A stretch of DNA of 64,000 nt from Ostreococcus lucimarinus (Eukaryota). The notes under the pieces are model-generated. The model was given only the letters and a program-made list of their open reading frames with translations, did not search any database and was not told the DNA's origin. Location: assembly GCA_000092065.1 (NCBI GenBank), contig CP000594.1; one strand, given 5' to 3'. This document shows positions 31,783 through 46,192 of this stretch, one piece after another (positions within the stretch are counted from its first letter, which is position 1; each line of letters begins with the position of its first letter). Position numbers and translations under genes: made by a program.

Positions 31783-33133
31783 ATGGCCCTCTCTCTCGCG
31801 CAGGTCGCGCCCGCGGCGCAGGTGCGTCGCGTCTCGCACCGTCGCGCGCGTCGCGCGCGTCTCTCGGCGTCGCGAACGCGCGCGCGTCGTCGCGAACGGC
31901 GGCATCGCTCGGCATCGGATAGGATGGCCATCGGCGCGTCGTCGCGGGTCGACGCGCGACCGGGACGCGACGACGCGCGACGTCGACGGAGGGCGAGAGA
32001 AAAATCGACGACCGCGGACGCGCGGGTGACTGACGAGAGGTTTCGCGGCGCAGTTTTCTTCGCGTAAGCGCGTCTGCGGCGCGCCGGCGGCGGCGTCCCG
32101 GACGCGCGTCGTCGTCCCGCGGGCTCGAGCGGTCGCGGCGCGCGCGAGCGGAGAGAAGAAGTCGGTGTTGATCGTGAACACGAATGGTGGCGGACACGCG
32201 AACATCGGGTTCTGGCTGGCGAAGACGCTGGCGGGGGCTGGGCACGACGTGACGATGAACGTCGTCGGCGCCGAGGACGATAAGAAGATGGCCAAGACTC
32301 CGTTCTCGTTGTTCGATGAGATTCGAGGGATGGGTGTGAAGACGGTGTGGGCGAACCCCGATGAAGTGGCGTCCAAGCATGCCGGGGCGAAGTTCGACGT
32401 GGTCGTCGATAACAACGGTAAGGACATGGACACCGTTGGTCCGGTGGCGGATTTCGCCGTCGCCGCGGGGGCGTCGCAGTTCTTGTTCGTCTCGAGCGCG
32501 GGTATCTACAAGCCCACGCCGTGCCCGCCGCACGTCGAGGGCGATGCCGTGAAGGAGACGAGCGGCCACGCCGTCGTCGAGGCGCACTTGAAGACGTTGC
32601 CGTTGAAGATGAGCTCTTTCCGCCCGCAATACTTGACGGGATACGGATCGAACAAGGACTGCGAGGAGTGGTTCTTCGATCGCGCCGTGCGCGGCCGACC
32701 GATCTTGGTCCCGGGCTCGGGTGATCAGCTCTCGTCGGTGACGCACGCCGAAGATTTGGCCACCATGATCGCCGCCGCCGTCGGCAACGACGCCGCCGCT
32801 GGGGAAATCTTCAACTGCGTGACGACGAAAGCCGTCACGCTGAACGGCATGGCGGAACTTTGCGCCAAGGCTGCGGGCGTCGAACCGAACGTGATCAACT
32901 ACGACCCGAAGGATGTCCCGGATGTCGAAGTTAAGAAGGCGTTCCCGTTCCGCCCGATCCACTTCTACAGCTCCAGCGCCAAGGCGCAAGCCGTGCTCGG
33001 CTGGTCGCCCAAGCACCCGGATTTGGCCGCCGAGCTCAAGGAACGCTTCGCGTACTACAAGTCCATCGGACGCGATAAGAAGGAGATGTCGTTCGAAACC
33101 GACGACAAAATTCTCGCCGCGATCGGCAAGTAA
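31783..33133 (+). CDS. CSP41: chloroplast stem-loop-binding protein of 41 kDa (CSP41, SDR/epimerase fold); two exons (31783..31821 and 32054..33133)
   Basis: Mature part: KKSVLIVNTNGGGHANIGFWLAKTLAGAGHDVTMNVVGAEDDKKMAKTPFSLFDEI...TVWANPDEV is CSP41-like. The track ORF starts at a GTG (32165), and there is no in-frame ATG back to the stop at 32027. Upstream, ATG 31783 (gccATGg) encodes MALSLAQVAPAAQ and ends at a CAG|GTGCGT donor. An acceptor gcgCAG|T at 32053 is phase-0 compatible and yields a transit-peptide-like junction. The exon 1 assignment is the less certain part. Confidence 0.75.
31822..32053 (+). other. putative 5' spliceosomal intron (232 nt) of CSP41
   Basis: GTGCGTCGC donor; branch gggtgaCTGACgagagg 20 nt before acceptor cggcgCAG. 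Same architecture as the three other introns in the window. Confidence 0.5.
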
Positions 33134-33217: not shown

Positions 33218-34396
33218 TCATCGGTTTGGAACTTGGGAGAAACCACCTAGAAAGTTGAGCGCCAAATTCTTCGCCGAGTCCGCCGTCAGGGATTGTATTT
33301 CACGATCCAAGTGCGCGCGATGCGTCGCCCGCGGACTGGCGTAGGCGTAACTCGCGTGTCGAAGCGTGACCTCGACCCCTCGCGTCAACGACTCGTACGC
33401 CTCGCCGAGATCGGAATCTTTGAACCTTTCTAACTCATCCATATCACCGTCGATGATGTGCCAATGCTCGCCCGGACGCGCGGTGGTGGCGATGAGATTC
33501 GCCGCGGCGAGCGAGCGCGAGGCAAAGTTTTCGGTCGGGATCACGCAGACCCCGTAACCGTCGACGTCTTCGGCGACTTCGAAACCGTTTTCTCTAAATA
33601 TTTCGCGGCACCTCTCCACCGCGCGTCCGCGCGAATTCAAGACGAACACCTTGCTCCCGCGCGCCAGCGCGGCGTGCAAGAGCGGTTTCAGGTCCTCGTA
33701 CACGACCTGCTCGCCCGCGCTCGTCCCCGGCTCGCCGTCCGCCGTCGTCTCCATCCGACGCGCGTCCACCGACGCTTGCAAACCCGCCGGCATCATCCGT
33801 CGCCCGTCCCACCCGACGCTCGACTCCACCTCCTCCCCCCACTTCAACACGCTCATCAACTTTATCTCCGGCCAGCTCGACACGATCTCGTCCACCGTCA
33901 ACGGCCTCGTTCTTCGCTCGAACCGCTGCTCGTTTGAAAACACCGGCCCCGGCCGCCCGCCGCTCGTCGTCCGCCCGCCGATGATCGCCTCGTCCGCGAT
34001 CACCCGCACCATCACCACCGCCTCGCACGACGTCGACTCCGCGATCGCTCGTCGCATCGTTCGCATCGCCTCGACGTACGACGACGCGTCTCCCGGGACG
34101 TGCTCCGGCCAGCGCTCGCGCGCCACCGCGTGGCTCACCCTCGTCATCTCCACCGTCGCGTCCACGACGGCGTCGTACGCGAACAGCACGACGTCGCGCG
34201 ACCGCTCGATGGCGTCGTCGTCGCTCGCGTCGCTCGCGTCCGCCGCGCGTCGCGCGACGCGTCGGCGTCGCGCCGACGCCGACGCCGATGTCCCGCTCGA
34301 TCGCGTCGCGCGGTCGCGCGCGCCTCGCGCGGTCGCGGTCGCGCGCGCGCGCGGCTCCGGACGCGCGCGCGACGCGTCGATCGCCCGCGCGTCCAT
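33218..34396 (-). CDS. hypothetical HAD-like hydrolase with organelle-type presequence
   Basis: The coherent part of track ORF 33218..35380, from the ATG at 34396 (MDARAIDASRARPEP...), has KVFVLNSRGRAVERCREIFRENGF and HWHIIDGDMDEL (HAD motif III/IV-like). Motif I is atypical. The upstream half of the track ORF is antisense junk opposite the JmjC gene. Confidence 0.4.
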   Translation of the reverse strand: MDARAIDASRARPEPRARATATARGARDRATRSSGTSASASARRRRVARRAADASDASDDDAIERSRDVVLFAYDAVVDATVEMTRVSHAVARERWPEHVPGDASSYVEAMRTMRRAIAESTSCEAVVMVRVIADEAIIGGRTTSGGRPGPVFSNEQRFERRTRPLTVDEIVSSWPEIKLMSVLKWGEEVESSVGWDGRRMMPAGLQASVDARRMETTADGEPGTSAGEQVVYEDLKPLLHAALARGSKVFVLNSRGRAVERCREIFRENGFEVAEDVDGYGVCVIPTENFASRSLAAANLIATTARPGEHWHIIDGDMDELERFKDSDLGEAYESLTRGVEVTLRHASYAYASPRATHRAHLDREIQSLTADSAKNLALNFLGGFSQVPNR

Positions 34397-34456
34397 GGCG
34401 CGCGCGCGTGTCGCGCCGCGCGCCGCGACGACGCTCGGAGGGACGCGGGACGCGCG

Positions 34457-35935
34457 ATGCGACGAAAAGATATTTTGTTTCGCGCCGGACGCCGCGAGCG
34501 TTTTAATCGCGCGACACACTCGTCGTCGCGCGGCCGATTCGGGACGCGCGCGACGCCGCGGGGCGCGACGTTGCGCGGAAAAACATATCGAAGATCGATC
34601 TCGCACGGCGGCATACGCGCGTACGGCGCGCGAGGCGTCGCGAGACGGGACGACGATGGGGAATCGCGCGAGGCGAGCGTTTCTGAAGACGAGACGACGC
34701 GCGGGACGGGGGGGTGGACGCCGCGCGCGCGCGAGGATTTCGGGACGTCGGGAGGGGCGTTTCCGGAGATTAACGTCGTGCAGTTCGTGGACGCGGAAGA
34801 CGGGGCGCCGGTGAGTTGTTTTGGGATGGATTACGAGACGCTGCGGCGGCGCGCGGCGGAGGCGGCGTTCGACGAGACGTCGACGACGCCCGAGTATCGT
34901 GGGTTTTTGAATCACGCGAGACGGTGCGTCGATGGGAGCGGAAAGATCGACTGGGGTTCGGTGACGCGCGTGGGGGGGCTGGCTGGGTCGAGAGAGGTGC
35001 GGCGGGCGCGCGGGGTGGACCCTCGGGACGTCGAGGCGGCGTGTTTGCGAGGCGAAGGCGAACCTTTGATCGTCGAGGACGGAGGGAAAGATTGGGCCAA
35101 GTGGGATTTTGAAACGCTTCAAAACGAAATCGGTGATTTTGAGGTGTTGTGTAACGATCGAGCGCCCGCGCGGCGACGAGAGATCGATGGATCCAAGCAG
35201 CGGTCGCACCTGATTCCGTTTCGGGCGTACGCCGACTACGTACGAAAGCGCGACGGCGTCGCCGGCACAGTCTTTGACGATCGCCGCACGCCGTTTTATG
35301 CAAACGGCATGCGCGTATTCAGCGAGTGCAAGCGCGCCGACGCCCTCTCGCGGGCGTTTCCACGACCTTATTTCACGCACGAGTGCGATAATACGGAGAC
35401 GCTGCTCATGGCGACAACGAACGAGCTCGGGTCGATACTCAAATTTGACTCGGAAATCGCGCTCAGAATGCGTGACAGCGTCTCAAAATCGCTCGACAAG
35501 ATGTTTGTCGGGCCTCGAGGCGCACTCACGCGCCTTCATTACGACGCCGGGGACGCTCACGGTTGGCTGGGACAGGTCGAGGGGCGGAAGCTCTTCGTGT
35601 TTTATCCGCCCAGCGCGTCGCCGATGCTTTATCCGATTGAAGACTCGCACGCCAGCGTCGATCCACTGGAGCCAGACTACGATCGATTTCCACTATTTCG
35701 CGAAGCGCAATCGCGCGCGCGAGTGTGCGTGCTGAATCCGGGAGAAGTCGTACTGTGTCCTCGACGATGGTGGCACTACGCCGTGGCCCTGGACACTAGC
35801 GTCACGGTTATGAGGAATTGGTACAACGTCAATACCAACGCCCAGGCGTTGGTCGAGCAGATATGCTCCACGATTAAACAAACAGTAGACAATAGAGCGA
35901 AAGGATCCGTGCCTCGAAACGAAGCGTCTCGATGA
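34457..35935 (+). CDS. JmjC-domain (cupin) protein
   Basis: LTRLHYDAGDAHGWLGQVEGRKLFVFYPP...NPGEVVLCPRRWWHYAVALDTSVTVMRNW is a JmjC signature. The start is uncertain (ATG at 34457 or 34826). The 5' part of the track ORF is Arg-rich. Confidence 0.7.
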   Translation: MRRKDILFRAGRRERFNRATHSSSRGRFGTRATPRGATLRGKTYRRSISHGGIRAYGARGVARRDDDGESREASVSEDETTRGTGGWTPRAREDFGTSGGAFPEINVVQFVDAEDGAPVSCFGMDYETLRRRAAEAAFDETSTTPEYRGFLNHARRCVDGSGKIDWGSVTRVGGLAGSREVRRARGVDPRDVEAACLRGEGEPLIVEDGGKDWAKWDFETLQNEIGDFEVLCNDRAPARRREIDGSKQRSHLIPFRAYADYVRKRDGVAGTVFDDRRTPFYANGMRVFSECKRADALSRAFPRPYFTHECDNTETLLMATTNELGSILKFDSEIALRMRDSVSKSLDKMFVGPRGALTRLHYDAGDAHGWLGQVEGRKLFVFYPPSASPMLYPIEDSHASVDPLEPDYDRFPLFREAQSRARVCVLNPGEVVLCPRRWWHYAVALDTSVTVMRNWYNVNTNAQALVEQICSTIKQTVDNRAKGSVPRNEASR

Positions 35936-36168: not shown

Positions 36169-36909
36169 CTACGCCGAGAACAACTCCTCCAAAGTCATGT
36201 CCCGCATCTTGGCCACTTCCTTGAACGTTCGCATCTCGTTCAACCCCGCAACGACCGCCCGCGCATTATTCAACGGGTTCGAGCTTCCGAGCTGTTTCGC
36301 GAAGCAATTCTTATAGCCCGCCAGCTCCAAAACCGTGCGGCACGCGCCCCCCGCGATGACCCCCGTCCCCGGGCTCGCCGGGCGCAGCATCACCACCGCG
36401 CCGCCCTTCCCCTTCACCGTCACTCGATGCGGGAACGTGTCCCCTTTAGTTATCGGCGCTCGCTTCGCGCTCTTTCGCGCATCGCTCGCCGCCTTCGTCA
36501 CCGCGATTTGCACCTCCTTCGCCTTCTGGCACCCGACGCCAACCAAACCCTTGCCGTCGCCCACGACCACGGTGGCGCGGAAGCTCATCTGCGACCCGCC
36601 CTTGGTGATTTTCGTGACGCGCGACACCTGGACGACGGACTCTTGCATCCCGTCGTCCTCCTTGCCGCCGCGACCGCGGCCTCGGCCGCCGCGACCACCG
36701 CGTCCGCCGCCGCGCCCGCCGCGCGCGCGCGGGGTCTCGGACTCGCCTTCGACTGCCGACGCGTCTGCGTCGTCGCCGGCGCGCGCGACCGTCGCCGTGC
36801 GCCGCGGGGCGACGGCGACAATTTTATCGCATCGGTTCGCGCGGCTCGGGAGGCGCGCGGACGCCGCGCGAGACGCGGGCGCGGCGGTGAGGGCGATGGA
36901 GGCCATCAT
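36169..36909 (-). CDS. RPS5: plastid 30S ribosomal protein S5 (uS5c), nuclear-encoded with a transit peptide and RGG spacer
   Basis: [132 protein letters not shown] is uS5. [13 protein letters not shown]...[20 protein letters not shown] looks like a presequence. Confidence 0.9.
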
Positions 36910-37229: not shown

Positions 37230-38537
37230 TTAATCGCGACCGGAATCGCGCGCGGCGTTCCGGATTTCGGTGCTACTGACGTCGACGCGAAAAGACGGGA
37301 GGGCGGCGAAGAGGTCGGCGGCGCGGCGCGCGGCGGCGGCGGCGAGGACGTCGGCGGCGGGGACGAAGGCGCGAGAGACGCGGTCGACGCGGCCGGCGAC
37401 GAGGAAATCGCACGCGTTGGCTCGGATTTCGTTGAGGGATTCGTCGAGGGCGGCGTCGGAGCCGGCGTATTTGGGGTCGAGGAGACGCGCGGCGGTGTCG
37501 GCGCCGACGACGAAGGCGGCGCCGGGGGCGGCGCGGGTCTTGTCCACGAAGAGTGGGGTTTTGGTGAGTAAACACACCGTGCCGGGGGTGGAGAACTGCT
37601 CGAGTCGACGCATGATCTCGTCTATGGAGAGCGTCCCCTTGTCGGCGTTCGTGACGCCGATTTCGTACGCGCCGAGCGCGCCCGGGGGCTTTGTCGCCGT
37701 CGCCGCGGCGAGCAAGTCGCGGTGGCCGTCGTGCAAAGGGTTGAACGACCCACTCAACACGACGTTCGCACGCGTGGCGCCCACTGCGGTGAGCACGCCC
37801 CCCGTGAATTCCAAAATCATCGGCGCCGCGGTGGTGGCACCGCTCGTCGACGAGTCGTCCTCCGCCAACCACCGCTCGACGACGGCGCGAGCGTCGCTCG
37901 CGTTTGCGTACGCCGAATCCTCCATCGTCGTCACCGAAACCTCGTCGAACTCGCGTTCGCTCAGAACTTCTCGCACTAAATCTACACCCGCGTCCGCGTC
38001 CGCGTCATCGACGCTCCGCCTCGCTTCCTCGTACAGCGCTCGCAACACCAACCGCGACGCGCAGCCCTCCTCGTCGAACCGCGAGCGCCCGCTCGTCTTC
38101 TCCAATCGCATCTCGTACGTCGTCATCCGCCCCAGCGTCTTCGCCGCCACGAAACATCTGTGGTCGCCTCGTTTGACGACGTCCTCCGTCGTCAGCGCGC
38201 ACGTCGCGCCGAGGCCCGTCGTCGCTCGCGCGTCGCTCGCCGACGCCGTCGCTCGCGAGCTTCCGTGTCGCACCGCCCTCGCGTACGCCGCGCTCGCCAG
38301 CGCCTCCGCGACTTCCCGCGAGCAGTACGATTCCACGTCATCGTCCGTCGCCCTCCCGAGCGTCTCGAGCGCGCTCTCGCGCGCGTACGGCACGCGCGCG
38401 TCCAATAAAGTGTTCGAGCACCTCGGGACGCTCGTCAGCCACCCGAGCGCGCGCGCCCCGCCGCCCGTGACGTGCAGCACCGCCCTGACCTTGCTCGCGT
38501 GGATCGTCTCCACGATGGCGCGGATTCCGGGCTCCAT
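37230..38537 (-). CDS. two-domain NAD-salvage protein: N-terminal CinA-C/PncC-like (NMN deamidase-type) domain fused to a C-terminal NadD/NMNAT-type nucleotidyltransferase domain
   Basis: N-terminal domain: VRAVLHVTGGGARALGWLTSVPRCSNTLLDARVPYARESALETLG...GLGATCALT...HRCFVAAKT...GRSRFDEEGCASRLVLRALYE fits the CinA C-terminal (PncC) pattern (TGG...S/T.PG.S..F..G.V.Y.N..K...LGV). C-terminal domain: NVVLSGSFNPLHDGHRDLL (the (H/T)xGH nucleotidyltransferase motif) and VSSTEIRNA (the NadD ISSTxIR motif). Confidence 0.7.
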   Translation of the reverse strand: MEPGIRAIVETIHASKVRAVLHVTGGGARALGWLTSVPRCSNTLLDARVPYARESALETLGRATDDDVESYCSREVAEALASAAYARAVRHGSSRATASASDARATTGLGATCALTTEDVVKRGDHRCFVAAKTLGRMTTYEMRLEKTSGRSRFDEEGCASRLVLRALYEEARRSVDDADADAGVDLVREVLSEREFDEVSVTTMEDSAYANASDARAVVERWLAEDDSSTSGATTAAPMILEFTGGVLTAVGATRANVVLSGSFNPLHDGHRDLLAAATATKPPGALGAYEIGVTNADKGTLSIDEIMRRLEQFSTPGTVCLLTKTPLFVDKTRAAPGAAFVVGADTAARLLDPKYAGSDAALDESLNEIRANACDFLVAGRVDRVSRAFVPAADVLAAAAARRAADLFAALPSFRVDVSSTEIRNAARDSGRD

Positions 38538-38693
38538 CGGCGCGCGCGCGACGCGGCGTCGCGCGGTGAAGTGCGACAGCGCGTCCCGGTCGTTCGTTCA
38601 AACGTTCGCGTCACACGTCGACGCGACGACGCGCTCGATCGCGCGCGCGCTCGCGAGCTCGAACGCAGGCGCGCATCGCGCGGTCGTCGACGC

Positions 38694-39059
38694 ATGCGCG
38701 CGAGGCGAACGGGCGCGGCGGCGGCGAACGAGGACGACGCGCGATTGGCCAAGTATCTCGTCGTGAACGCGGAAAACGTCGCGCACAACGCGCGAGTGAG
38801 CGCGCGAGTGTTCACGTACCTGAGCATCGTGTCCGGAATCGCGATCGGCGCGCTCGGATACACCGGAGTGCGAGGGTTCGCGGCGCACGGGGTGTTTATG
38901 CTGGCGAGCGCGTGCGCGGTGGCGGCGAGCAAGTGCGAGGGACGACCGACGAGTTTCTTTCCGTCCGTCGATAAGGTGTTCCTGGACGGACCGAACGCTG
39001 GATTGCCGACGTTTGTGTTGTTTTGGACGCTGTCGTATAATTGCTGGCACTTGTTTTAG
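38694..39059 (+). CDS. Rab5-interacting protein / EMC6-like small two-TM membrane protein
   Basis: 121 aa from the ATG at 38694. EDDARLAKYLVVNAENVAHNARVSARVFTYLSIVSGIAIGALGYTGVRGFAAHGVFML...AGLPTFVLFWTLSYNCWHLF resembles the Rab5ip/C20orf24 family. The upstream part of the track ORF is Arg-rich. Confidence 0.55.
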   Translation: MRARRTGAAAANEDDARLAKYLVVNAENVAHNARVSARVFTYLSIVSGIAIGALGYTGVRGFAAHGVFMLASACAVAASKCEGRPTSFFPSVDKVFLDGPNAGLPTFVLFWTLSYNCWHLF

Positions 39060-41344: not shown

Positions 41345-42151
41345 CTCGTCGCGGACGCCGCGCGCTTCGACACATGGTCAAATCACACATTAAATACGTC
41401 GCACACACACCTAAAAAAACATAAACTTCAATCTCAGACCCCCGACGCGATCGCGCGACGCGTGTTACAGGTTTTTCCCGATCCCCCTCGATCGCGCGCC
41501 GACGTCACGCGATCGCGTCGCCGCGCGGTCGATCGATCGCCGATCGCCGTCGTCGAACCTCGCCGCGTCGATCGATGATCACGCGCGGACGATGCGGTGA
41601 GGTTCGACGCCCGCGCGGGCGCGTCGATCGCGAATATTCTCGAGACGTCGGGCCGCCGCGCGCACTTTACTTTACGTCGCGTGGTCGAACGACACACAGC
41701 AGGTGCGCGAGCGATGCGAGCGCGCGTGACCGAGACGCGCGCGCGCGGGAAATATTCCGCCGCGCGTTCGCGCGCGCGGAGGCGCGGCGCGGCGCGGGAT
41801 CGGGGCGAACGGACGCGCGATGGGACGCGCGCGCGATGATGATCCGTCCGCGGCGGCGGGTTATCTTGACGCGTGGCGTCGCGCGCGACGCGAATATGTC
41901 GGGGCTCGCGCGGTAATACCGCGCGGGAAATCGCGTGCGTCGATCCTGCGCGTCCGTGGGGGATGTCGCGGCGCGATCGCGCGGTGGGATGGGAAGATGT
42001 TGAAGATCTTGGATTTTTGGGACGAGGCGCGGGTGACGGCGCGCGGCGGCGCGGACGTCGAGGCGAAACGAACGAACCGGAAGACTGACGACGGCGAACG
42101 CGCTGAAAACGAGCAGTAAACCGCACATCAACACACTCCACAGACATAAAT

Positions 42152-43315
42152 ATGGGATTTCTTTTCACTTCCGAATCCGTGAACGAGGGTCACCCGGATA
42201 AGCTCGCGGATCAAATCTCCGACGGCATCTTGGATGCGTGCCTCGCGCAAGATCCGGATTCCAAGGTTGCGTGCGAGACCGCGACGAAGACCAACATGGT
42301 GATGGTTTTCGGTGAAATCACGACCAAGGCCAAGGTTGACTACGAAGCCGTCGTGCGCCAAGTGTGCCGCGACGTCGGTTTCATCTCTGATGAAACCGGC
42401 TTGGACGGTAACAAGTGCCGCGTGCTCGTCGAGTTGCACGACCAATCCCCGGACATTGGTCAAGGTGTGCACGGTATGGGCACCAAGTCCGATGAAGACA
42501 TCGGTGCGGGTGACCAAGGTCACATGTTTGGCTACGCCACGGATGAAACTCCGGAACTCATGCCGTTGACGCACGTTTTGGCCACCAAGCTCGGTCACCG
42601 CCTCACCGTCGTCCGCAAGGATGGTACGTGCCCGTGGGTGCTCCCGGATGGTAAGACGCAAGTCACCATCGAGTACGAAAACGAAGGCGGCGCCATGGTG
42701 CCGAAGCGCGTGCACACCATCTTGATCTCCACCCAACACATCGAGGGCGTGACGAACGAGAAGATCGCCGAGGATCTCATGAACGAAGTCATCAAGAAGG
42801 TTGTCCCGGAAAAGTACTTGGACGCCGACACCATCTTCCACTTGAACCCGTCTGGACGTTTCGTCATCGGTGGCCCGCACGGTGACGCCGGTTTGACCGG
42901 TCGTAAGATTATCATCGACACCTACGGTGGCTGGGGCGCGCACGGCGGTGGCGCCTTCTCCGGTAAGGACCCGACCAAGGTCGACCGCTCTGGCGCGTAC
43001 ATCTCCCGCCAAGCGGCCAAGTCCGTCGTCGCCGCGGGTCTCGCGCGCCGATGCTTGTTCCAAATCTCCTACGCCATCGGCGTCGCCGAGCCGTTGTCCG
43101 TGCACGTCGACACCTACGGCACCGGTAAGATTCCGGATTCCGAAATCCTCGCCAAGGTCAAGGCCGCGTTCGATTTCCGTCCGGGCATGATGGGCAAGGC
43201 GCTCGACCTCAAGCGCGGCGGTAACAAGCGTTACCAAACCACCGCCGCCTACGGTCACTTCGGCCGCGATGAAGACCTCGACATCTTCACCTGGGAAAAG
43301 GTCGTCCCGCTCTAA
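42152..43315 (+). CDS. METK: S-adenosylmethionine synthetase (methionine adenosyltransferase), plant type
   Basis: [65 protein letters not shown]...[31 protein letters not shown]...[20 protein letters not shown] is near-identical to plant SAMS over the conserved blocks, as I recall them. The ATG at 42152 was verified. Confidence 0.95.
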
Positions 43316-43572
43316 GATAAAGTAACGAAGCCGTCGGCGCGGCGCGTCTCCTCGCGCGCGGCGTCGTCCCGACCCCGCGCGCGCGTCGTCCCCGCGCCGC
43401 ACACGTTTGTCAAATTTTTAGACGGCGAGCATTTCGCTGTCCGACGGAACAGTCGGAATCATCACTAGACGAGTCGTAAGGATATTATTACGTTGTGAGG
43501 AGAGCCACCGTATAGAGCACTCGCGCCTTCGCGCATTCATGCATTCGCTCGCGTCACGCCGCGCCTCGGGCG

Positions 43573-44367
43573 ATGCCCGCGCGCGCGTCCGCGCCGCCTC
43601 GTCCCGCCGCGCGCGCGCGTCGCCCTCGCGCGCCGCGCCGCGCGTCGCGCGTCCCGCGCGCGTCCCCCCTCGACCGCATCGATCCCGCCGCCGTCGTCGC
43701 CCGCCTCGCCGAGGCCGCGCTCGCCTCGCCGCTCGTCCTCAAGCGCTGCGACGACGTCCGCGTCGTCGTCGACGCCGACCTCGCGCGCGCGCTCGCGCTC
43801 GGCGAGCTCGGCGGCGCGCGCGTGCGCGGCCGCGGCTGGTCGAGCCCGCGCGACTTGACCGCGCGCGACGTCGAGCTCGTCGCGCGCGACGTCCGCGTCG
43901 ACTGGAGCGCGGCGATGGCGATGCGAGGGGTGGTGCTCACGCGACCGGCGCGCGGCGAGGCGCGCCTGACGCTCGACGGGAGGGATTTCGAGAATTTCTT
44001 GAGGCACCCGCTGGCGAGACGCGCGGCGCGCGACGAAGCGTTCGAGTTCGAGCGAGGCGACGTCGCGAGCGACGACGACGACGGGTACCTGGAGTGCGAC
44101 GTGGTGATGCGAGACGGCGGCGCGCGGCGAACGGTGCGAATGCGACCGGGAGAGGGATCGACGGTTCGCGCGACGTCGCGCGGCGACGGGGACGAGACGC
44201 TCGAGCGCGCGTTGGAGACGTTTTTCGAGCGACTCGTCCTCGATTTAGACGGCACGGAGCTGCGGTATCGCGACATGACGATCGACGCGCGCGCGACGGC
44301 GCCGACGGTGACGTTCGAGCTCGATCTGTGCGTCAAAAGGTTTCCGTCGCCCGGGATACGGTTTTAG
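43573..44367 (+). CDS. hypothetical protein (Arg/Ala-rich presequence, acidic core), weak call
   Basis: Only ORF in 43330..44420 with non-degenerate composition (VLTRPARGEARLTLDGRDFENFLRHPLARR...DDDGYLECDVVMRDGG...ETFFERLVLDLDGTELRYRDMTID...FELDLCVKRFPSPGIRF). The overlapping ORFs 43539..45104 (+) and 43554..44336 (-) are Arg- or Ser-rich junk. I recognise no domain. Confidence 0.3.
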   Translation: MPARASAPPRPAARARRPRAPRRASRVPRASPLDRIDPAAVVARLAEAALASPLVLKRCDDVRVVVDADLARALALGELGGARVRGRGWSSPRDLTARDVELVARDVRVDWSAAMAMRGVVLTRPARGEARLTLDGRDFENFLRHPLARRAARDEAFEFERGDVASDDDDGYLECDVVMRDGGARRTVRMRPGEGSTVRATSRGDGDETLERALETFFERLVLDLDGTELRYRDMTIDARATAPTVTFELDLCVKRFPSPGIRF

Positions 44368-44923
44368 CTCGCGTTCTCTCGCTCGCGCGCGAGACGCGCG
44401 CCTCTAATTCTAGCTCTACACATCTAGTTCGCGTTTTCCGGCGCCCGCGTTCGCCTCGACGCCTCCCTCGTCACCGCCCGCATCGCGCTCGGCGGCCACA
44501 GCACCGCGGCGATCCGTCCTCGAAGCGCCCCCGTCGGCGTCTCGCCCGCGTCGCCGTCGTCTCGCGCGTCGCGTCCTCGCCATCCCGCGTCCGCTCGCAG
44601 CGCGCACGTCCCTCGCGAGGGCCCTCGCACGGCGTCGACGCGCTGAATCACGATGCCGTCGCCGTCGCGCGCGCGCACGGCGACGACGTCTCCCGCGTCG
44701 ATCGCGCCGCGCGCGACGCTCGCGCGGTCGCACCACACCACCACCGCCTCGAACGCGTCGCGCGCGTCGCTCGACGCGCTCGCGCGCCGCGCGAGCGCGC
44801 GCTCGGGCGCGCCGACGCGGTCGCCGACGACGGCGCCGAGCGCGAGCGCGAGCGCGCCGTCGCGCGCGACGCGCCGAAGCGTCATGCTCTGCCGCGCCGT
44901 CCCGGTCGCACTTCGCGACGCGC

Positions 44924-46192
44924 ATGCGCGACGCGCGGCGCCGCGCGCGCGCGCCGCGCGCGCGAATCGTCGCGGCGCTCGCGCTCGCGCTCGTCGCGGC
45001 GCGCGCGCGCGCGGGACGCGCGCGCGAGGCGACGGGACGCGCGAACGATGGCGACGACGTCGCGGCGCTGCGCGACGCGCTGCCGAGCGACGGCGCGACG
45101 CTGAGCGAACTGTTCAGGTGGTCGATCGAGGCGGGACACCCGCGCGCGTCGAGCGACGCCGACGATCGGGCGCGCGGCGACGCGGGTCGGGCGGAGGGTT
45201 GGCGCGCGAGGGCGCGCGCGGCGCTCGCGCGAGCGACGGGACGACGCGACGACGGCGCGAGCGCGGTCGACGCGATCGACGACGACGAGGGCGCGGAAGC
45301 GGAAGCGGGACGGTCGAAGACGGTGGATTCGATCGAGTCGAGGAAGAGGGAGGTGCGGGAGGCGCTGGACGCGATGGCGGCGGCGCCGAGTCCGCACGCG
45401 CTCGCGCGAGAGTGCGGCGAAGTGGTGAGGGACGCGCGTAAGAATGAAACCAAGGCGCGAAGGGTGCGCGCGCTGGAGATTTTGTACGATTTGGTGGCGC
45501 CGATCGAGTTGGCGAACGATTTGGATAAGCTCGGGGTGGCGGAGGCGCTGATCGGGGCGCTGAGGGACGAGGACGAGGACGTGGCGAGCGCGGCGGCGAG
45601 CGCGCTCGCGGCGGCGGCGTCGAATAACGTCGTCGTGCAGGGGATCATTCACGAGAGACGAGGGTTCGATGCGCTTTTAGAGCTCGTGTCGTCGCCCGCG
45701 ACGCCCGCGGAGGTGCGTCATAAGTCGTTGTGGGTGCTCGGGATGTGCGCGCGGACGCACGAGGCGTCGCGCGCCGACTTTTTCGCCGCGGGCGGCGCCG
45801 GCGTGTTGGCTGATATTTTGTCTCCGAAAACGCCGGTCAAGACGCGCACGCGCGCGATGGTCTTATTCGGCGACTTAGTTCTCATCGACGGCGTCGCGGA
45901 CGCGATGTTTGCCGACGTAAAAGTCGCGAAATCCTTACTCGAGGACGTCGTCGCGAGCGCGCTCGACGCCGACGCCTCGCTCGACGCGCGCGAGAAAGCG
46001 ATCGGCGCGCTTCTCGCCGCGCGCGAGCGCGGCCCTGAGATCGTGCGACATACGCTCGACGGATTCAAGCGCGATCTCTCGACGCTCGCCGACGCGTTCG
46101 ACGCCGCGGCAAAGGCGGAGGACGACGACTCCGCCGCCGACATCAGTCGTCTCGCGCGCGCGTTGAGCGTCTCGCCAAGGGTTGAATTGTAG
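44924..46192 (+). CDS. SIL1/Fes1-type nucleotide exchange factor (armadillo-repeat Hsp70 NEF) with signal peptide
   Basis: Signal peptide MRDARRRARAPRARIVAALALALVAARARAG, then ARM/HEAT-like repeats (RALEILYDLVAPIELANDLDKLGVAEALIGALRDEDEDVASAAASALAAAASNNVVVQGII...LLELVSSP...VRHKSLWVLGMCARTHEASRADFFAAGGAGVLADIL). C-terminus ...SPRVEL. Confidence 0.55.
   Translation: MRDARRRARAPRARIVAALALALVAARARAGRAREATGRANDGDDVAALRDALPSDGATLSELFRWSIEAGHPRASSDADDRARGDAGRAEGWRARARAALARATGRRDDGASAVDAIDDDEGAEAEAGRSKTVDSIESRKREVREALDAMAAAPSPHALARECGEVVRDARKNETKARRVRALEILYDLVAPIELANDLDKLGVAEALIGALRDEDEDVASAAASALAAAASNNVVVQGIIHERRGFDALLELVSSPATPAEVRHKSLWVLGMCARTHEASRADFFAAGGAGVLADILSPKTPVKTRTRAMVLFGDLVLIDGVADAMFADVKVAKSLLEDVVASALDADASLDAREKAIGALLAARERGPEIVRHTLDGFKRDLSTLADAFDAAAKAEDDDSAADISRLARALSVSPRVEL

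Follow-up and report, generated by a model that had tools for sequence, protein, structure and literature searches.

A 64,000-nucleotide stretch of contig CP000594.1 from Ostreococcus lucimarinus (GenBank assembly GCA_000092065.1), here called the window, carries on its minus strand a gene whose product consists, in this order, of a CinA/PncC-like domain, a linker and a nucleotidyltransferase domain of the NadD/NMNAT type. An initial annotation, made from the sequence alone, had read the gene as a fusion of the nicotinamide mononucleotide (NMN) deamidase PncC with an adenylyltransferase acting on its product, nicotinic acid mononucleotide (NaMN), which would place two consecutive steps of nicotinamide adenine dinucleotide (NAD) salvage on one polypeptide. 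The protein combines known folds, PncC and NMNAT, in a catalogued, conserved and uncharacterised two-domain architecture, and is most likely an enzyme of nucleotide-cofactor metabolism, of the pyridine-nucleotide type. The residue states of its N-terminal domain indicate that the phosphate-gripping part of the PncC pocket has been kept and that the Ser/Lys deamidase dyad is gone.

The open reading frame (ORF) of 435 amino acids (aa), together with its stop codon, occupies positions 37230-38537 (-) of the window, and its ATG is the first after an in-frame stop 63 nucleotides upstream. Because homology covers its whole length, we take this minus-strand ORF as the gene: homologs align end to end with a query coverage of 97-100%, and the search recovered the identical protein as well as relatives ranging from 87% to about 35% identity. 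The G+C content of the region (64-67%) accounts for the many long ORFs (up to 498 aa) that overlap the gene between 36000 and 39500, on both strands and in other frames, and that are not genes. The 498-aa ORF on the plus strand (37270-38766) is likewise a high-GC artefact. The features of the gene are collected in Table 1; all counts of residue states below refer to a family alignment of 50 diverse relatives. Neither the window protein nor any of these 50 relatives has a Pfam match to COG1058/MoCF, Nudix or kinase domains.

Table 1. Layout of the gene and of the protein it encodes, in window positions
Feature	Position	Strand	Basis
Complete single-exon gene, 435 aa	37230..38537	-	ORF list, upstream in-frame stop, end-to-end homology to >100 proteins
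N-terminal CinA/PncC-fold domain, residues 1-175	38013..38537	-	
V23-T-G-G-G27 loop, counterpart of the PncC 'ESCTGG' block	38457..38471	-	Gapless HMMER register against 2a9s, 4ct8 and EcPncC
S41...Y51...A56...G61 segment; phosphate-binding Ser/Tyr kept, catalytic Lys replaced by Ala	38355..38417	-	Alignment and relatives
K122-R-G124-D-H126-R127, family-specific conserved basic/His cluster	38157..38174	-	Residue states in 50 relatives
K147...R151-x-R153...E156...S161 motif	38055..38099	-	Residue states in 50 relatives
Variable linker or bridging subdomain, residues 176-255	37773..38012	-	Large indels across the family
C-terminal nucleotidyltransferase domain, NadD/NMNAT type, residues 256-435	37233..37772	-	
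GSFNPLHDGH, (H/T)xGH ATP-binding motif, residues 263-272	37722..37751	-	Sequence; aligns with HxGH of NadD, NMNAT and PPAT
E292...N297-A-D299-K300, conserved strand with its loop, following the first Rossmann helix; candidate site for the mononucleotide phosphate	37638..37664	-	Conservation
G345-A-D347-T348...P-K-Y357, counterpart of NadD 'GxD...PxW'	37467..37505	-	Low-confidence alignments
SSTEIR, SxTxxR ATP-phosphate motif, residues 421-426	37260..37277	-	Sequence; aligns with ISSTKIR of human NMNAT1 and with NadD

Family distribution and stand-alone halves

An exhaustive HMMER search through 1.84 billion cluster representatives returned 7,403 proteins at E<=1e-3, 2,726 of them at E<=1e-30. 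Nearly all of the best 150 matches are single-stretch, full-length proteins of about 370-470 aa; a few are longer or match in several stretches. Among the longer relatives, proteins of 535-885 aa carry insertions or extra N-terminal regions (P0031-P0051, P0374, P0402, P0406 and P0469). Named members come from land plants, mosses, charophytes, chlorophytes, the red alga Porphyra and Chloroflexota, so that the fusion, whose spread through algae and plants the initial annotation had proposed to check, extends from land plants to chlorophytes and Porphyra and into bacteria as well. Relatives are present in the genomes of at least 570 bacterial species, and the family is conserved from Chloroflexota to every land plant sampled. 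The nearest relatives of the window protein come from marine metagenomes only. The window itself, by its composition, gene density and neighbouring genes, would suit a picoplanktonic green alga.

Land-plant members bear names such as 'Nucleotidylyl transferase superfamily protein' and 'Cytidyltransferase-like domain-containing protein'. The probable Arabidopsis member is AXX17_AT3G30140, likely to be AT3G27610 ('Nucleotidylyl transferase superfamily protein'). Literature searches on At3g27610, its putative paralog At2g01220, CinA-adenylyltransferase fusions and plant NMN deamidase returned mentions in gene lists only; they yielded no published functional characterisation of the fusion or of AT3G27610, in agreement with the earlier impression that this is not a characterised enzyme. 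The cyanobacterial 'NMNAT-C', considered as a precedent, proved to be an ordinary single-domain NMNAT.

Both halves also occur alone. The C-terminal domain is found as a bacterial protein of about 200-210 aa in Chloroflexaceae, Dehalococcoidia and Aquificales, which suggests that the transferase can work without its N-terminal partner. The N-terminal domain stands alone in proteins of about 163-204 aa, some of them automatically named 'CinA family protein' or 'NMN deamidase PncC'. Some 19 such proteins carry the same residue signature as the fused domain, with PKKGDHR conserved and likewise without the PncC lysine; since the stand-alone copies share these residues, they probably make up a functional site of the domain itself, not a contact surface between domains. 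In at least one genome (two assemblies, loci L093 and L094), the halves are adjacent genes with a 4-bp overlap, matched by hhalign with a probability of 100% (E 5.6e-47). These genes encode a 194-aa N-domain and a 206-aa C-domain (L093 4420-5621, L094 52-1253) and represent either true translational coupling or a frameshift in both assemblies. A stand-alone gene of the C-domain type also lies on a 7.8-Mb bacterial contig (L095 414-1004, -). There, a second CTP_transf_like gene of 196 aa, 4 kb off (L095 5001-5633, +), may be a canonical NadD, in which case the family would be no simple replacement of NadD in that genome.

Nucleotidyltransferase domain

The Pfam domain CTP_transf_like (PF01467) covers residues 261-427 with 22.3 bits, past the gathering cutoff of 21. 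This marginal match is the only Pfam domain found in the window protein, and 49 of the 50 relatives share it. Both motifs that the initial annotation had picked out, GSFNPLHDGH and SSTEIR, are present in the sequence; together with the Pfam match and the structure, they uphold its assignment of a NadD/NMNAT-like adenylyltransferase fold. Within the first motif, G263, S264, F265, N266, P267, H269, G271 and H272 are invariant or near-invariant, and within the second S421, S422, T423 and R426 are invariant.

Two further conserved segments lie between these motifs. E292, D299 and K300 are invariant and N297 is present in more than 90% of the relatives; its position, and its analogy to the NadD loop PPHK, make this loop a candidate for binding the mononucleotide phosphate. 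In the second segment, G345, D347 and T348 are invariant and Y357 exceeds 90%. This stretch was aligned with FIIGGDMVEYLPKW of NadD 8aih and with GQDSLLTFPTW of E. coli NadD (EcNadD), in both cases at low confidence. The tryptophan that follows the GxD segment in NadD stacks on the pyridine ring. Y357 aligns with this tryptophan of NadD 8aih and with W117 of EcNadD, in low-scoring alignments only.

We compared the domain with NadD and NMNAT enzymes (9IW1 from C. thermophilum, 4RPI from M. tuberculosis, human NMNAT3 5Z9R and E. coli 1K4K), which it resembles in sequence at the motif level only. It differs from them in the invariant E...N-x-D-K loop, in the 'GxDTAxRLxxPKYY' segment and in the N-terminal CinA-like domain to which it is joined. 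When E. coli NadD was compared with the profile of the C-terminal domain by local hhalign, nothing beyond the HxGH region aligned, and global alignments were suggestive only. In the structure model, among nucleotidyltransferases, the domain is predicted to be closest to the NMN/NaMN adenylyltransferases.

The NadD, NMNAT and phosphopantetheine adenylyltransferase (PPAT) models of NCBIfam all score far below their cutoffs for the window protein. The best single matches in both NCBIfam and the PDB sequences are to archaeal-type PPAT (NF001985, E 2e-5; 3do8, E 3.6e-4), with all curated cutoffs missed. These matches would suit a generic adenylyltransferase, PPAT-like or acting on some other phospho-substrate, in which the CinA-like domain binds no ligand and serves structure or oligomerisation. 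They span the HxGH stretch only, whereas the NadD equivalog model TIGR00482 covers residues 340-431, where the mononucleotide half of the domain lies. Neither a full-length match nor structural closeness to PPAT (CoaD) was found. We regard a generic adenylyltransferase as very unlikely.

CinA-like domain and its pocket

Pfam's CinA family (PF02464) finds no match in the window protein even at E<=10, so that of the two Pfam families that the initial annotation had proposed to check, only PF01467 is borne out by the search. Weak PF02464 matches appear in 30 of the 50 relatives at E<=1 (best E 5e-5), and the family profile matches CinA sequences in the PDB with E 0.011-0.08. In a fold comparison of the structure model, the domain has the predicted fold of the CinA C-terminal domain. 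On the strength of the structure comparison and the weak family-level profile matches, we assign it to CinA and take the domain to descend from the PncC/CinA-C fold. The fold proposed earlier thus stands, with a length of about 175 residues instead of 240; residues 176-255 are variable, and within them residues 230-235 form the lowest-confidence part of the structure model. A phmmer match of residues 44-131 (38145-38408) to HopZ1a 'Orf34' of Pseudomonas syringae (5klp/5klq, E 9e-5 to 2e-4) was not reproduced by profile or fold searches and is probably compositional.

The PncC active site is well described. In Agrobacterium tumefaciens CinA (AtCinA, 2A9S), S31 and K63 are catalytic, and both S31A and K63A are inactive; the NMN phosphate is held by S48, Y58 and R145, and T105 and G106 act on the tetrahedral intermediate (PMC5384747). 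In Thermus thermophilus CinA (TtCinA), Lys-301 is the general base and 'absolutely conserved', and the phosphate is bound by Arg-377, Tyr-296 and the backbone of Gly-284/Ser-286; this asparaginase-like mechanism pairs the lysine base with a threonine (PMC4246079).

When the family profile was aligned by HMMER to 2a9s, 4ct8 and EcPncC (PncC of E. coli), each comparison gave an identical gapless register, from which the fate of these residues can be read. S41 corresponds to S48 of AtCinA and S286 of TtCinA and is serine in 49 of the 50 relatives; Y51 corresponds to Y58 and Y296 and is tyrosine in all 50. The catalytic lysine (K63 in AtCinA, K61 in EcPncC, K301 in TtCinA) is A56 in all three alignments. 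No relative has lysine at this position, where methionine (22), leucine (11), threonine (4), phenylalanine (4), serine (3), valine (3) and others are found. The 'V.Y..E.K..LG' segment of the initial annotation reads VPYARESALETLG here: V49, Y51, E54 and L60-G61 are in place, and its lysine is Ala56. The TGG motif that it had also named is present as V23-T-G-G-G27, with G25 invariant. In the gapless register, the position of the Ser31 nucleophile is T24 (threonine in 19, alanine in 17, serine in 13 and proline in one of the relatives); a MAFFT register, shifted around TGG, places it at H22, with the states H/A/Y/C/V/S. None of the registers tried, gapless or MAFFT, gives a conserved serine nucleophile. 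AtCinA G46 corresponds to R39 in the window protein, and is glycine in 34 of the relatives.

In the second half of the domain, R151 (49/50) is probably the counterpart of the phosphate-binding Arg145, judging by a global hhalign alignment of low confidence that pairs it with R142 of EcPncC and R145 of AtCinA. The same alignment pairs G106 with G108 and G120 with G124, all of which are invariant or nearly so. In this strand, G108 is invariant and T112 is threonine in 46 relatives, and the register for the counterparts of Thr105 and Gly106 is ambiguous. Via S41, Y51 and, at low confidence, R151, the mononucleotide-phosphate binders of PncC appear to be retained.

The family has near-invariant residues of its own. 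They comprise H13, W33, T43, K122 (46/50), H126 (49/50), R127 (46/50), K147 (48/50), R153 (50/50), E156 (50/50) and S161 (48/50), with G124 invariant beside them. Compared with PncC (PF02464, COG1546; AtCinA 2A9S, E. coli PncC/YgaD, TtCinA 4CT8/4UOC), the window protein therefore differs in what it has lost (the catalytic lysine, a conserved serine nucleophile and Glu30), in what its family conserves instead (H13, T43, K122, H126, R127, K147, R153 and E156) and in its partner: PncC stands alone or follows a COG1058 domain, whereas here the domain is fused to a nucleotidyltransferase.

These residue states bear directly on the deamidase proposal, in which the protein would be a bifunctional NMN deamidase and NaMN adenylyltransferase with relocated catalytic residues, for example T43 or T112, K122 or K147, and E156. 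In its favour, the CinA/PncC fold and the NMN-phosphate binders are retained, the conserved polar site suggests catalysis, PncC followed by NadD makes metabolic sense, and N-domain fragments bear the label 'NMN deamidase PncC' in the automatic annotation of the Joint Genome Institute (JGI). The published mechanism that uses threonine beside lysine (PMC4246079) could draw on T112. But the lysine common to both published mechanisms is absent from all 50 fused and about 19 stand-alone relatives, its replacement by alanine abolished AtCinA activity (PMC5384747), the Ser31 position is alanine in a third of the family, and CinA paralogs without these residues were reported to be non-functional as deamidases (PMC3855486). 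We consider a bifunctional deamidase quite unlikely. The two consecutive salvage steps of the initial annotation, which had named the loss of the catalytic residues as its own refutation, probably do not hold in the form proposed. The missing dyad shifts the question from the conversion of NMN and ATP to nicotinic acid adenine dinucleotide (NaAD) alone to the ligand and chemistry of a divergent CinA-fold site.

Gene contexts and candidate functions

Outside some fungi, eukaryotes are not known to have an NMN deamidase, and what becomes of NMN in plants and algae is unsettled. Because a conserved PncC fold is joined here to an NMNAT-like enzyme, the fusion is a candidate for a missing or alternative step of NAD, possibly flavin, homeostasis. 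Bacterial relatives offer a second, independent handle on function through their tight operon links to UbiD/UbiA/UbiX and flavin reductase genes.

We clustered, without bias, the neighbours of family genes in 73 Dehalococcoidia/SAR202 species (median pairwise identity of the family proteins 51%). A UbiD-family gene lies directly downstream in 29 species (median gap 3 bp), and UbiD, UbiA or UbiX follows within five genes on the same strand in 34. A PF01613 flavin reductase gene is directly upstream in 25 species (median gap 23 bp), and nuoA/B/C/D/H are downstream in 25; just six of the 73 loci show none of these contexts. With 613 bits (cutoff 496) for the NCBIfam model TIGR03701, the UbiD gene encodes the menaquinone decarboxylase of the futalosine route; NCBIfam also marks its partner as MqnP-like and the flavoprotein as the flavin prenyltransferase UbiX. 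The context is more varied in a second sample, which comprises 80 metagenome loci that were ranked on a member from Chloroflexaceae. The UbiD-UbiA-UbiX operon recurs in six of these loci, and a YhaM-like OB+HD phosphohydrolase gene is directly upstream in 13; in about six of the 13, a UbiX gene and a YhbP/PNPOx-like FMN-binding gene adjoin divergently, as in locus L090. Stand-alone CinA-like genes, too, occur beside phosphoesterases: in two bacterial metagenome genomes (L096 3034-6583, L099 3105-6570), one lies in a conserved block, preceded by a gene for BKACE and followed by genes for a 192-aa metallophosphoesterase and, next, an aldo-keto reductase with an Fe-S domain.

No nadE, pncA/B or nadA-C neighbour was seen in the roughly 150 bacterial loci, which speaks further against a bifunctional deamidase. 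An isochorismatase-family gene (a family that includes the nicotinamidase PncA; L087 3519-4016), located some 2 kb upstream of the homolog in Chloroflexaceae, is the only neighbour in these loci that resembles NAD salvage. The contexts, drawn mostly from one phylum, do not single out NAD salvage; what they connect with the family are phosphoesterases of nucleotides and respiratory functions of flavin, quinone and NADH.

Such neighbours would suit a flavin-linked nucleotidyltransferase, which would convert flavin mononucleotide (FMN) to flavin adenine dinucleotide (FAD), run in reverse or use a flavin-derived mononucleotide, with the CinA-like domain binding an FMN-type 5'-phosphate in the service of UbiX/UbiD (prenyl-FMN) and flavin-reductase systems. 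Besides the operon partners in the 73 species, the divergent UbiX and FMN-binding genes beside the pair of HD gene and family gene point the same way from an unrelated arrangement in other clades, as does a PNPOx_N gene near the Chloroflexaceae copy. FAD synthase models weakly match seven of the 50 relatives, fewer weak matches across the family than the NadD models obtain. Closeness to FMN adenylyltransferase (the RibF N-domain/FAD synthase) was found neither in sequence nor in structure. A flavin-linked role seems to us possible, if unlikely.

We tentatively favour, at a little under an even chance, an active NadD/NMNAT-type adenylyltransferase joined to a PncC-derived domain that binds a 5'-phospho-mononucleotide without PncC-type deamidation, providing a second nucleotide site or a different chemistry. 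ATP would be held by H269 and H272 (HxGH) and by S421-R426 (SxTxxR), and the mononucleotide by the E292/N297/D299/K300 loop and the G345-D-T...P-K-Y357 segment; the expected reaction is that of NMN or NaMN with ATP to give NAD or NaAD and pyrophosphate. The N-terminal domain would grip the 5'-phosphate of a mononucleotide through S41, Y51 and probably R151. Having lost the Ser/Lys machinery, it would have gained a site formed by H13, T43, K122, H126, R127, K147, R153 and E156. Because the phosphate binders are kept, the deamidase dyad is lost and a site of its own has been gained, we see in this domain a second, specific site for binding a nucleotide; it could serve substrate capture and hand-over, sensing or non-PncC chemistry, and would work with the adenylyltransferase, not as a canonical NMN deamidase. 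Beyond the folds, motifs, residue states, family breadth and gene contexts described, we infer the identity of the substrate, the role of the N-terminal domain and any coupling between the two sites.

Several observations weigh against this reading. By sequence, the C-terminal domain is as near to PPAT as to NadD/NMNAT, and TIGR00482 reaches 20.5 bits against a cutoff of 112.45. The register of the second half of the N-terminal domain (T105, G106 and R145) comes from a low-confidence alignment, and the strongest operon partners in bacteria, UbiD/UbiA/UbiX and flavin reductase, are no better a pointer to NAD than to flavin or quinone metabolism. Finally, the strong conservation of polar residues in the N-terminal domain suits an enzyme better than a passive binding module.

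A more novel reading would be a new clade of the PncC fold, in which a His/Lys/Arg/Glu site carries out an undescribed reaction on a 5'-phospho-mononucleotide (a new NMN deamidation or a modification of base or ribose) and passes the product to the fused adenylyltransferase. We hold this to be unlikely. If true, it would mean that plants, algae and Chloroflexota share a hitherto unrecognised way to make or recycle a dinucleotide cofactor, wired in bacteria to UbiX/prenyl-FMN, flavin reductase and menaquinone-dependent respiration. HcgF (PDB 3WVA), a CinA-fold protein of iron-guanylylpyridinol (FeGP) cofactor biosynthesis, is far more distant from the N-terminal domain than PncC is. Its chemistry and its ligand, guanylylpyridinol, differ from those of PncC.

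The architecture has partial parallels. Bifunctional CinA (COG1058 ADP-ribose pyrophosphatase plus PncC), NadM-Nudix (2QJT) and NadR likewise fuse a PncC-fold or NMNAT domain to a second nucleotide-processing module. Bifunctional CinA differs in partner and order: in the window protein the CinA-like domain is N-terminal and its partner is an adenylyltransferase. The pyrophosphatase-PncC pairing of bacterial CinA is echoed by the stand-alone N-domain homologs beside phosphoesterases (Metallophos, HD). In plants, an FAD synthetase (FADS) reported to be fused to an inactivated COG1058 FAD pyrophosphatase is a precedent for joining a cofactor nucleotidyltransferase to an inactivated CinA-related domain, with a PAPS-reductase-like FADS and COG1058 as its domains rather than an NMNAT-like domain and a PncC fold (PMC9678776). 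Yeast Pof1 (YCL047C; PMC13191266), which with 258 aa is a small, atypical NMNAT specific for NMN and lies outside the Nma1/NMNAT1-3 group, has the two ATP motifs of the C-terminal domain; it differs in being single-domain, and a possible relation between the two is a lead only.

Neighbouring genes in the window

The NAD kinase gene that the initial annotation had placed nearby is indeed there, at 28653-31092 (-), 6-8 kb from the fusion gene, with PTP-NADK, NAD_kinase and NAD_kinase_C domains. We reject this proximity as functional evidence and share the earlier view that it is probably coincidental, since the region is a gene-dense eukaryotic one in which the remaining genes nearby are of unrelated eukaryotic kinds (ribosomal protein S5 of the organellar type, a WD40 protein resembling WDR48, and an amidohydrolase). 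The kinase gene, with an N-terminal phosphatase-like PTP-NADK domain, is divided between two ORFs that overlap (29167-31092 and 28653-29531); this points to a short intron or a frameshift separating the N- and C-domains of NAD_kinase. Ribosomal protein S5 (36169-36909, -) is of the bacterial/organellar type and has an Ala/Arg-rich N-terminal extension of about 85 aa that includes a Gly/Arg repeat. It has the appearance of an organellar protein that is encoded in the nucleus and carries a targeting peptide. Five further long ORFs of 410-720 aa (31454-33016, -; 33218-35380, -; 42128-43402, -; 43539-45104, +; 44416-45648, -) have no Pfam match at E<=1e-4; they may include genuine genes specific to the lineage as well as GC artefacts.

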